Below, piece after piece: positions 984-2,660 of a stretch of DNA of 5,639 bases. Position numbers and translations under genes: made by a program. The notes beneath the pieces are model-generated. The model had not been told where the DNA came from. It saw only the letters and a list, made by a program, of their open reading frames with translations, and searched no databases. The stretch lies in the IMG/VR virus record IMGVR_UViG_2563366968_000011, one strand, 5' to 3'. Numbering within the stretch: the first letter of the stretch is position 1; each line of letters opens with the position of its first letter. This DNA is from a virus. Its lineage: Duplodnaviria; Heunggongvirae; Uroviricota; Caudoviricetes.

Positions 984-1705
984 GCAAGATTGATTATCAA
1001 AAGCTTCGTGAAATCGCTGAAAAAACAAAAATTGCTGGTGAAGCACCTGTAATGCCTTTCGATCAGCGAATTAATGCGCTTAACGATTTTATGAAGCACT
1101 TTTCGCCAGATATCGCGCTGGTATTGTTGGATGAACGGGAAAGAAACCAGCAATACATCAAACGCCGTGACCAGGAGAACGAGGATATTGCGCTTACGGT
1201 TGGGAGGCTGCGCGTTGAGCTGGAAGGCAAAGACAGCAAAATAGCCAATCTTACCGCCGAACGCGATGCTCTTCGTGAAGGTGAGATGGGCGACGCTAGG
1301 CATAGCAACACACGGGCCGCAGCTGATATCTACTTCCAACTGGTCGAGGAATGCGAAATTCCTGCTGGCGGATCTCTGGTCGAGTACGTTGACGATATGC
1401 GCGAGAAGCTGGAAGCCGCAGAGAAGCGCATTGCAGAACTGGAAGCACGGGAAATAAAACCAGCCAAAGGCGAAGTTCTTGTCGTTGTTTCTGGTTTTAC
1501 TGGTTGCGGAAAAAGCGCCATCGCCGGGGAAATAGAAATCGCGATGAAGGCTATTGGTGTACCGGTTCAGTGGACTAATGGCGATGTGGAAAAGCGCATG
1601 ACAGGAGCTGACTGGCTGACAGCGATTGAGATGTACAAACCAACAGTGCGCATCGTGGAAGTTAATGTGCCACGCGCCCCTGGCATTCGCATCAAAGGAG
1701 AGTGA
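980..1705 (+). CDS. Ead/Ea22-like prophage protein with central coiled coil
   Basis: GTG at 980 is preceded by AAGGAGG at 967..973 and overlaps the upstream stop as GTGA, so I prefer it to the in-frame ATG at 947 given in the ORF track. The central region (…LTVGRLRVELEGKDSKIANLTAERDALREGE… and …MREKLEAAEKRIAELEARE…) has the charged, heptad-like composition of a coiled coil. The C-terminal ~75 aa contain a Walker-A-like string GFTGCGKS. The Ea22-like assignment is from overall architecture and genomic position, not a search. Confidence 0.6.
   Translation: MSKIDYQKLREIAEKTKIAGEAPVMPFDQRINALNDFMKHFSPDIALVLLDERERNQQYIKRRDQENEDIALTVGRLRVELEGKDSKIANLTAERDALREGEMGDARHSNTRAAADIYFQLVEECEIPAGGSLVEYVDDMREKLEAAEKRIAELEAREIKPAKGEVLVVVSGFTGCGKSAIAGEIEIAMKAIGVPVQWTNGDVEKRMTGADWLTAIEMYKPTVRIVEVNVPRAPGIRIKGE
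1680..1705. repeat. 26-bp gene-junction repeat, copy 1 (CTGGCATTCGCATCAAAGGAGAGTGA)
   Basis: Identical to 2174..2199. It encodes the last residues (GIRIKGE) and stop of the Ea22-like ORF and supplies the SD for the next gene. Confidence 0.9.
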
Positions 1706-1707
1706 GA

Positions 1708-2199
1708 ATGCAAATTTCACCGGTTACTCTTCGTGTTGCGAAGGCGTTTATATCCAGACATCACCGACACAATAAACCCCCGGTGGGGCATAAATTCAGC
1801 ATTGGTCTGAGAAATGATGCCGGAGAATTGATAGGTGTGGCGACAGCCGGTAGACCTGTTGCACGACATTTGGACGATGGATTAACGCTTGAAGTAAATC
1901 GCACATGTACCACAGGAGAACGCAACGCTAACAGCGCGCTTTATGGTGCTGTCTGGCGGGCAGCAAAGGCTATGGGTTATCAACGTTGTATTACGTACAC
2001 CCAGGCAGATGAATCAGGAGCATCTCTCCGCGCAGCTGGTTTTGTTCGTGTGAAAGAGCTTCCTCCAAGAAAAAGCTGGGCGGAATCAAGCGTCGCCCTG
2101 CGGAGTAAACGCGATCCGGTCGGAAACGGTGGTGTTCCTCGTGTGCTCTGGGAAATCAGGAGAATGAGTACCACTGGCATTCGCATCAAAGGAGAGTGA
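1708..2199 (+). CDS. hypothetical protein, possibly GNAT-fold (acetyltransferase-like)
   Basis: ATG at 1708 lies 5 nt downstream of AAAGGAGAG (1694..1702); the GTG at 1702 in the ORF track sits inside that SD. The pattern …LTLEVNRTCTTGERNANSALYGAVWRAAKAMGYQRCITYTQADESGASLRAAGFVRV… loosely fits GNAT motif A/B topology, but the canonical R/Q-x-x-G-x-G/A loop is not clearly present, so the fold call is tentative. Confidence 0.6.
   Translation: MQISPVTLRVAKAFISRHHRHNKPPVGHKFSIGLRNDAGELIGVATAGRPVARHLDDGLTLEVNRTCTTGERNANSALYGAVWRAAKAMGYQRCITYTQADESGASLRAAGFVRVKELPPRKSWAESSVALRSKRDPVGNGGVPRVLWEIRRMSTTGIRIKGE
2174..2199. repeat. 26-bp gene-junction repeat, copy 2 (CTGGCATTCGCATCAAAGGAGAGTGA)
   Basis: Identical to 1680..1705. 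It encodes the C-terminal GIRIKGE and stop of ORF 1708..2199 and the SD for ORF 2201..2650. Confidence 0.9.
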
Positions 2200-2200
2200 T

Positions 2201-2650
2201 ATGACCACTATTACCAGAGAAAGCTCGAAGATTAAATCATTCATCAATGGCTTCCTGAGCGACCCAGCGCACGATAACCAATCCTCAGACAGCCTGCTTG
2301 CCAATGTGTTTCGTATCGCACAGGCATCGCTGGAAGCAGAGCCGATAGCGTGGCGATATCGCTATGTGAAAAAAGGCGTTACGGACTCTCAGGGGGAGCA
2401 GTGGGTTGGTGACTGGAAATATGTACCGACAAAAGAGGATTGCAACGACAGGCCGAACTATGAAATTCAGGCGTTATTCACCGCTCCACCTGTGCCACTG
2501 ACACCAGAAGGATTGATTAAAGCAGTGCGCTTCTATGAACAGGTTAAGCGTGAAAATCCGCCAGTCGAAACCGGAGCATGGAAAGACGCTGTTGACTGGG
2601 TGCTCAAAGAGGCTTGCCAGGCTGTAAACATTGGTACCAAAGGAGATTGA
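2201..2650 (+). CDS. hypothetical prophage protein, paralogous to the N-terminal region of the next gene
   Basis: ATG at 2201 follows the upstream TGA (2197..2199) by one base and is preceded by AAAGGAGAG. It shares the motifs SLEAEP(I/V)AW and APPVP with the downstream ORF. Confidence 0.6.
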   Translation: MTTITRESSKIKSFINGFLSDPAHDNQSSDSLLANVFRIAQASLEAEPIAWRYRYVKKGVTDSQGEQWVGDWKYVPTKEDCNDRPNYEIQALFTAPPVPLTPEGLIKAVRFYEQVKRENPPVETGAWKDAVDWVLKEACQAVNIGTKGD

Positions 2651-2660
2651 TATGAGCACT
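2631..2660. repeat. degenerate third copy of the junction sequence (…CAAAGGAGATTGATATGAGCACT)
   Basis: CAAAGGAGA-T-TGATATGA matches junction copy 2 (CAAAGGAGAGTGATATGA) at all but one base. The upstream protein ends …TKGD and the downstream protein begins MST, against MTT after copy 2. Confidence 0.7.

Follow-up and report, generated by a model that had tools for sequence, protein, structure and literature searches.

A repeated gene junction in a lambdoid prophage

The virus record IMGVR_UViG_2563366968_000011 of IMG/VR is a stretch of 5,639 nucleotides, referred to here as the window, which is identified as the early-left (exo-xis / b) accessory region of an E. coli lambdoid prophage. Two consecutive gene junctions in this window carry an identical 26-nt sequence, CTGGCATTCGCATCAAAGGAGAGTGA, and the following junction carries a degenerate version of it. 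This 26-mer, also called the patch or the linker below, is the subject of the present account. An earlier reading of the letters alone (the sequence-only reading) had proposed that it is a linker sequence of the kind predicted by modular phage evolution, with recent gene conversion at the 3' ends of the genes as the alternative. The features concerned are listed below.

980-1705, + strand: Ead/Ea22-like gene (Pfam Ead_Ea22 on residues 2-155 of 241; annotated in NZ_CP195804)
1680..1705, + strand: linker copy 1 (J1), the last seven codons and TGA of the Ea22-like gene and the Shine-Dalgarno (SD) sequence for the XF1762 gene (ATG 1708)
1706..2199, + strand: XF1762 gene cassette, 494 bp, the gene and its 3' linker, between two exact 26-mers
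1708-2199, + strand: XF1762-family gene (NCBIfam XF1762_fam, E = 5e-61)
2174..2199, + strand: linker copy 2 (J2), the last seven codons and TGA of the XF1762 gene and the SD for the gene with ATG 2201
2201-2650, + strand: hypothetical gene 'g2201' (open reading frame and annotation), ending in the degenerate linker J3
2625..2650, + strand: degenerate linker copy 3 (J3), TAAACATTGGTACCAAAGGAGATTGA, the SD for the gene starting at 2652; repeat family D1
2652-3599, + strand: DUF551 gene, downstream of J3 (Pfam DUF551 on residues 256-314)

On the + strand there are two exact occurrences of the 26-mer, 1680-1705 and 2174-2199, in agreement with the sequence-only reading, and none of 200 dinucleotide-preserving shuffles contained any match at ≤3 mismatches. 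The identity between J1 and J2 covers exactly 26 nt, with differing bases on both flanks (C vs A upstream, G vs T downstream). In both exact copies the frame is xCT GGC ATT CGC ATC AAA GGA GAG TGA, which encodes G-I-R-I-K-G-E-stop, and AAAGGAG, the SD, lies 6-8 nt ahead of the next ATG (1708 and 2201). The earlier description of each copy as the last seven codons, the stop and the next SD therefore holds for both. Judged from this layout, with an SD 5-10 nt before the start and a stop within a few nt, the junctions would qualify as translationally coupled.

The two proteins ending in GIRIKGE are otherwise unrelated, as had been noticed, and BLASTP between them returned the heptapeptide as the sole match. 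The Ea22-like gene (980-1705) consists of a conserved N-terminal coiled-coil region, a variable C-terminal domain, and the linker tail. Its neighbour had been described as a possible GNAT-fold protein, which did not hold, as it is a member of the XF1762 family. The XF1762 protein also has a match to the Mom DNA-modification family, which is sub-threshold only (22.4 bits, cutoff 27.1).

The third near-copy is real, although its coordinates had been given slightly off, as about 2634-2654. A repeat search grouped 2629-2666 with 2178-2215, the two sharing their register and 84% identity across 38 nt. With the stop codons aligned, J3 occupies 2625-2650, is identical to the 26-mer at 18 of 26 positions, codes for NIGTKGD-stop, and is followed by an ATG at 2652. 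All three window copies thus span a stop, an SD, and a start. Relatives of gene 2201-2650 carry graded versions of the linker (TAAACATTGGCATC..., TAAACATTCGCATC...) with differing downstream genes, and the first five codons of gene 2201-2650 itself (ATGACCACTATTACC) are also common to several other downstream genes. J3 was considered as an abundant family of its own and rejected, with three related copies in 199 loci, all behind one gene family.

Distribution of the 26-mer

The last 26 nt of ea22 in phage lambda are the 26-mer (NC_001416 29847-29872, minus strand). An exact scan of IMG/VR found it in at least 120 viral contigs. As many of these contigs represent prophages in isolate genomes, with possible redundancy, distinct classes were counted rather than occurrences. 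For phage records and E. coli genomes a 35-nt query was used, consisting of the linker and its commonest flanking bases. This query is present in 388 phage records, including Stx1 and Stx2 (Shiga toxin) phages, P22-like Salmonella phages, and P7. Among complete E. coli genomes, 3119 of 5426 contain it, at up to 12 places each (median 2). Plasmid records account for 473 of the E. coli places; the plasmids among the matches listed measure ~48-147 kb, and many fall in the range 90-106 kb, as is typical of P1-like phage-plasmids. P1/P7/D6-like phages were likewise observed to carry the linker, along with ea-type genes that neighbour it. An earlier survey saw no recent exchanges between the lambda-like and the P1-P2-Mu groups (PMC3945230), to which the early-left region with its linker may be an exception.

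An exact scan of one genome per species gave 36 matches (loci L200-L235), mostly on tiny, low-coverage or ~48.4-48.5-kb contigs in unrelated taxa such as Streptomyces, Bacillus, Shewanella, Prevotella, Pseudomonas, and others. The lambda genome measures 48,502 bp, and these contigs look like contamination of public assemblies with phage-lambda DNA. Only the matches in Escherichia, Shimwellia, and Phytobacter fall in taxa where a resident copy would be plausible.

This distribution bears directly on one alternative, a local event in one prophage lineage, either a tandem duplication or recent gene conversion between neighbouring gene ends. Two exact copies only 494 bp apart in the window are what such an event would leave. 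Nothing else is duplicated between the Ea22-like and XF1762 genes, however, and the event is refuted by the presence of the identical sequence, beside many different neighbours, in lambda, in Stx, P22-like, and P1/P7-like phages, and in the phage records, viral contigs, and E. coli genomes counted above. Recent gene conversion as the sole explanation consequently fails, and a local origin has next to no probability.

Shuffled neighbours and breakpoints at the junction

The 300 nt on each side of every listed occurrence of the 26-mer were clustered by single linkage at ≥75% identity over ≥100 bp. Among the matches listed, to which all counts in this paragraph refer, this yielded 10 upstream and 13-14 downstream classes that are mutually unrelated. 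The junctions with both flanks classed (115) show 36 combinations, compared with ~13 expected for complete linkage and 47 +/- 2 for random pairing, and 39 quartets of flank classes pass the four-gamete test. At 117 of 124 junctions an ATG or GTG lies exactly one base past the TGA. No relationship is seen among the upstream open reading frames (ORFs) across the final 100+ residues, and each has the ending (A/P/T/V)GIRIKGE. They encode at least six types of Ea22 C-terminal domain, one of which is that of lambda, as well as XF1762, an HNH endonuclease, and others. The downstream genes are as diverse, and the C-terminal domain class of the Ea22-like gene in the window is by itself followed by seven differing downstream classes.

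The 26-mer is hence a short conserved sequence at a gene boundary with non-homologous DNA on either side in different phages. Its occurrence in a single context, or between a constant pair of genes, had been named as an outcome contrary to a linker. Both are excluded by its recurrence between many gene pairs and next to many kinds of cargo.

Comparison of related prophages places the ends of homology at the same positions. In locus L191, window 1680-2204, comprising both linkers and the XF1762 gene, is matched at 99.4% with unrelated DNA on either side. The Ea22 gene is matched to exactly 1705 in L155, L123, and L138, after which the sequences diverge. L119 is 99.5% identical over the 379 nt preceding the linker and its match also stops at 1705; beyond the linker just a 45-nt island is left, consisting of J2 and five codons, and such islands lie at window 2171-2215 in both L155 and L119. 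L238 is a near-isogenic prophage inserted at mlrA as well; it is 98.5% identical to window 148-2203, beyond which its genes are different. The breakpoints between these related phages therefore fall on the edges of the 26-mer, at 1680, 1705, and, near J2, 2203 (L238) or 2204 (L191). Breakpoints at the patch were the second observation expected of a linker in the sequence-only reading, and every check named there came out in its favour.

Upstream of the XF1762 cassette five kinds of neighbour were found, and downstream of it four. The gene order in L013 is g2201-like, XF1762, and another gene, compared with Ea22, XF1762, and g2201 in the window. This indicates that the order of cassettes is permuted, which goes beyond allele change at a fixed position. 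An exact 'empty site', in which the Ea22 gene of the window is followed by one linker and then gene 2201-2650, was not found among the loci fetched. The nearest cases are L155 and L119, where the same Ea22 allele and one linker precede a gene sharing the first 16 nt only.

Conservation of DNA rather than peptide

A sample independent of the patch was obtained by collecting 80 loci via the conserved Ea22 coiled-coil core, of which 78 had a readable gene end. The exact 26-mer is present at 38 of these ends and a one-mismatch version at eight, the latter accounting for two synonymous and four non-synonymous events. A further eight carry an indel variant, ...GCATTCGCATCAA(A/C)GGAGGTGAGTA(A/G)TG, and the remaining 24 have other junctions, for example ...GGTAAAGGAGAGGCATCATGAGC.

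A back-translated peptide scan identified 117 sequences, among the matches listed, that code for GIRIKGE-stop. The same 24 nt are used in 103 of these and the other 14 each differ by one synonymous change; there is no sequence with two. At third positions, diversity was 0.018 for the patch vs 0.102 for the conserved Ea22 core of the same genes, where the patch set was made up of copies with ≤2 mismatches, which biases the value of 0.018 downward. The family models stop short of the tail, with XF1762_fam covering residues 3-136 of 163 and Ead_Ea22 residues 2-155 of 241. Similarly, most of the 120 closest XF1762 homologues finish shortly after RVLWEIR and only two have the GIRIKGE end. As the codons are near-invariant and the tail lies outside the family models, the identity of the 26-mer is a property of the DNA and not of the peptide.

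The converse is that the peptide is conserved, as a C-terminal tag, (A)GIRIKGE or K/R-G-E, recognised by a partner, a protease or an assembly interface, with the DNA identity being secondary. Ea22 proteins have all been reported to end in K/R-G-E, the significance of which is unknown (PMC7093339). Likewise, the tails of linker families keep A-G-I and alternating hydrophobic residues, often with G-E (IRIKGE, IKVEVK, IQVIEGEGQ). However, long-term selection on a peptide predicts something other than the near-invariant codons described above, and the non-synonymous events in the one-mismatch variants exceed the synonymous ones. The degenerate J3 retains the DNA pattern yet codes for NIGTKGD, and the tail is borne by proteins of unrelated function (Ea22 domains, XF1762, HNH endonuclease). 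Furthermore, K-G-E is the SD, AAA-GGA-GAG, read in frame. Since this in-frame SD forms part of a DNA linker, the K/R-G-E end of Ea22 is explained by it. In the nuclear magnetic resonance paper on Ea22 no statement was found on the order of the last residues. A peptide tag is quite improbable, and the heptapeptide common to the two C-termini most likely arose as a by-product of the linker.

Tests for other types of element

A third possibility is that the patch is a regulatory RNA element, such as a translational operator to which a phage repressor binds, a small-RNA target or a processing site, read by a trans-acting factor which co-regulates the early-left genes, with the mosaic boundaries coinciding because these are gene ends. 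The patch overlaps the ribosome-binding site of each downstream gene and occurs at several junctions per phage. It also contains 14 nt 5' of the SD which have no obvious role in translation and are conserved as strongly as the SD. Against this, an Rfam scan of the window found no match at the patch, its sole hit being a snoRNA match below threshold at 3596-3682. When the three junctions and their consensus were folded, no stable or shared structure emerged (z-scores -0.13 to +1.5), and no promoter-like or terminator-like site was found at the patch. Approximately 40% of Ea22-like genes have quite different junctions, so a universal operator is not required, and regulation alone leaves the stops of homology at the patch edges and the shuffled partners unexplained. 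An RNA element in this sense is considered unlikely; nonetheless, such a role is compatible with a role in recombination and does not exclude it.

The cassette-like behaviour, including permuted order, is reminiscent of a dedicated site-specific system that recognises the patch and moves cassettes, resembling an integron or relying on a homing endonuclease, and one of the tail-bearing cassettes does code for an HNH endonuclease. However, no inverted-repeat or hairpin architecture like that of attC was found in the patch, and no dedicated recombinase was linked to it; the window has a single integrase, the prophage Int at the att end. The chimeric variants of the patch (TAAACATTCGCATC..., TAAACATTGGCATC...) instead suggest that crossover positions within it vary. 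A site-specific system is therefore very improbable. The Chi recombination hotspot, the octamer GCTGGTGG, was also rejected, as the patch reads GCTGGCAT (or CCTGGCAT / ACTGGCAT), of which the first five bases (GCTGG) alone match. Hence, the 26-mer is neither a PeSL-type regulatory cassette (discussed below), an integron attC, a Chi site, nor a member of an Rfam family.

Related linkers in other phage regions

In Salmonella prophages (L243-L246), an XF1762 homologue is located in the nin region, after the replication genes, where it is bracketed by a second exact 26-nt direct repeat, TGGCATCCAGGTTATCGAAGGAGAAG (5971-5996 and 6462-6487). The tails produced by this linker are ...GIQVIEGEGQ and ...GIQVIEGEDGE. 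It was detected in eight viral contigs (L247-L254) with nine unrelated upstream and at least six different downstream sequences, and in the four longer loci it is again downstream of replication genes. A Klebsiella version of the linker reads CGCCGCTGGCATCAAGGTGGAGGTGAAATAG. The 5' core GCCGCTGGCAT (A-A-G-I) is common to the three otherwise different linker families of E. coli, Salmonella, and Klebsiella, at window 1676-1690, L243 6455-6484, and L239 6455-6477, respectively. The notion of host-specific linker dialects is weakened by the presence of the E. coli-type linker in P22-like Salmonella phages. Region-specific dialects (exo-xis vs nin) seem to fit better, with few loci behind this comparison.

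The XF1762 homologues in these prophages have neighbours with roles in defence or modification. In the Klebsiella prophages L239-L242 (6796-8381) the homologue adjoins KwaA/KwaB (Kiwa), and in the Salmonella prophages L243-L246 (6748-8742) it adjoins a large DNA methylase and an AcrVA2-like gene.

A coupled junction as a probable crossover site

It is probable that the 26-mer is a conserved boundary, or 'linker', in the early-left accessory region of lambdoid and some P1-like phages, where a coupling junction doubles as a short-homology crossover site for the exchange of cassettes. The recurrence of the sequence, its variable partners on both sides, the breakpoints at the patch edges, and the identity at DNA level are established. 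From the comparative data we infer that crossing-over takes place within the patch, and by which recombination enzymes.

The 3' half of the patch, AAAGGAGAGTGA followed by N-ATG, would serve as a translational-coupling junction, with a strong SD, the upstream stop, and the next start one base on. It would be kept as a working junction of this kind and, in the frame of the gene before it, appends ...GIRIKGE to any protein that happens to precede it. The same 26-33 nt recur at many junctions, both in the several prophages of a cell and in phages entering it, and may thus offer just enough identity for homologous recombination, either by phage annealing proteins of the Red/RecT/Erf type or by host RecA. 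Crossovers in the patch could then replace, insert or delete whole genes while the frame, stop, ribosome-binding site, and start stay intact. The XF1762 gene in the window would be such a cassette, situated between two copies of the linker. Repeated exchange is also expected to homogenise the linker copies through concerted evolution, which fits the near-absence of synonymous variation, and the chimeric variants are suggestive of crossovers at differing positions within the patch. A recombination minimum of ~30 bp is cited for Red-beta, and Rad52-like phage recombinases dominate exchanges at short sequences (PMC3945230), while diverged sequences are also recombined by Red (PMC2327257).

Several points weigh against this interpretation. 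All evidence for recombination at the patch is comparative and no event was directly observed. At 26 bp the linker is near the low end for efficient use by Red or RecA, meaning that exchanges may be rare, and some may need a longer shared context, such as CGCGCCG upstream and the first five codons downstream. The association between upstream and downstream partners is not fully random (36 combinations vs 47 expected), indicating that part of the pattern is clonal. The counts are themselves approximate, since the IMG/VR figures hold among the matches listed and the flank classes derive from single-linkage clustering. Breakpoints also occur inside genes (741, 1106, and ~3390-3450), making the linker one of several patches. 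Finally, three linker families share the GCCGCTGGCAT core, and the alternating I-x-I/V of their tails could reflect some constraint on either the peptide or the DNA.

A broader and more tentative proposal, which may well not hold, is that the accessory regions of temperate enterobacterial phages are recombinase-independent cassette arrays. Each array (exo-xis, nin) would have its own linker 'dialect', evolving in concert, that sets which cassettes can be exchanged and where they land across lambda-, P22-, and P1-like phages. If so, a cargo gene such as XF1762 wears the local linker of its host array. Around 70% of phage mosaics have no detectable trace of homologous recombination in analyses with 50-bp windows (PMC3945230), and short linkers would, under the same proposal, account for part of these.

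Other features of the window

The remaining features are as follows.

1-147: IS1 end, 100% identical to IS1B copies and present on thousands of plasmids
172-642, + strand: yfdR-type HD 5'-deoxynucleotidase, truncated by IS1
633-983, + strand: hypothetical gene
957..999, + strand: conserved island at the Ea22 5' boundary, where the upstream stop codon and the GTG start of Ea22 overlap (GTGA) and ends of high-scoring segment pairs cluster
3666-3908, + strand: DUF4222 gene
3912-4046, + strand: small ORF
4065-4319, + strand: excisionase
4353-5639, + strand: tyrosine integrase, the prophage Int at the att end

Beyond 1-147 the window matches E. coli prophages whose integration site adjoins mlrA. 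More than 80% of the window is present in one place in just 3 of 5426 complete E. coli genomes, whereas pieces of it are found in thousands, and the region is therefore highly mosaic. IS1 has removed the first ~14 codons of the yfdR-type 5'-deoxynucleotidase gene; upstream of this gene, intact relatives (NZ_CP195804) go on to yfdQ and yfdP.

The island at 957-999 appears as isolated 37-43-nt matches (86-98% identity) with unrelated flanks in L191, L138, and L237. Further islands in otherwise unrelated loci lie at 1106-1235 (61/120 loci) and 1400-1450 (31/120), both inside the Ea22 gene, and at 3390-3448 (51/120), at the start of the DUF551 domain (YPVTPDGWISCSERMP). Such short islands also act as mosaic breakpoints; L237 and the window, for example, differ between 741 and 1106.

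Genes 2201-2650 and 2652-3599 have internal patches in common, at 2324-2353 / 2757-2786 and 2471-2496 / 2883-2908. These encode ASLEAEP.AW and APPVP and are 81-87% identical in DNA; the two genes are partly paralogous. Similar motifs also occur in other downstream cassettes (D4, D10, U10). In RefSeq, the region 2652-3599 (L121 8505-9452) is split into a partial DUF551 pseudogene (window 2652-2777) and a separate DUF551 gene (2790-3599). As the window has a single uninterrupted ORF, the split is probably an artefact of annotation resulting from a mosaic N-terminus.

Comparison with known systems

The closest precedents are the linkers of lambdoid phages (Susskind & Botstein 1978; Botstein 1980) and the boundary sequences of phage HK620 (Clark et al. 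2001), as summarised in PMC3029335, PMC2327257, and PMC2839356. Like these, the 26-mer is short and conserved, is located at boundaries in a subset of related phages, and flanks non-homologous modules. Lambdoid linkers have been proposed as sites of homologous recombination that swap modules while regulation and gene order are preserved. In contrast, the unit exchanged here is a single small gene and the order can be permuted. The present linker also differs in lying inside coding sequence, which places an identical peptide tail on unrelated proteins. It is possible that the 26-mer is already among the boundary sequences of Clark et al. 2001.

In the PeSL (promoter-early stem-loop) cassettes of T4-type phages, recombination between flanking copies and excised gene circles were shown experimentally (Arbiol et al. 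2010, PMC2839356). Both kinds of repeat bracket single accessory genes in hyperplastic regions, bound the replacement or presence of genes, and include the downstream SD and start. However, PeSL are ~100 bp long, intergenic, and contain a sigma-70 promoter and a terminator stem-loop. The 26-mer has neither promoter nor stem-loop and overlaps the end of the upstream coding sequence, with its genes predicted to be translationally coupled in one operon.

The mosaicism of Ea22 has been published (PMC10834534), as have its unrelated C-terminal domains with a common end tripeptide (Dydecka et al. 2020, PMC7093339). The residues of that K/R-G-E motif are the same as those described here, but they are not specific to Ea22 as they also end XF1762, HNH, and other genes. 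Integron cassettes are likewise arrays of single promoterless genes with a recombination site behind each and with variable cargo and order. Their attC sites, however, consist of imperfect inverted repeats and are recombined as folded single strands by a dedicated integrase, neither of which applies to the 26-mer. Ordinary coupled phage junctions resemble it in having AAAGGAG 6-8 nt before the ATG and TGA one base before the ATG. These share an SD consensus only, whereas here 26-33 nt are identical, including 14 nt without a role in ribosome binding.

A debate dating back to 1980 concerns whether phage mosaicism reflects exchange at linkers or random illegitimate joining followed by selection. 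Linkers are usually disputed on the grounds that none can be found at the majority of boundaries (PMC3029335). An abundant, sharply defined linker in lambda and in over half of the complete E. coli genomes makes the question accessible to standard lambda genetics. It also provides a simple reason for the C-terminal tail shared by unrelated proteins, including the K/R-G-E of Ea22, and cautions annotators and structure predictors that such tails are artefacts of junctions and not features of domains. Furthermore, the linker represents a route for small accessory genes, some of them beside defence genes, among Shiga-toxin phages and other prophages. The concept of linkers is known; what is added to it here is a quantified and abundant example, its presence in lambda, cassettes in permuted order, a test of DNA against peptide conservation, and an explanation for the shared tail.

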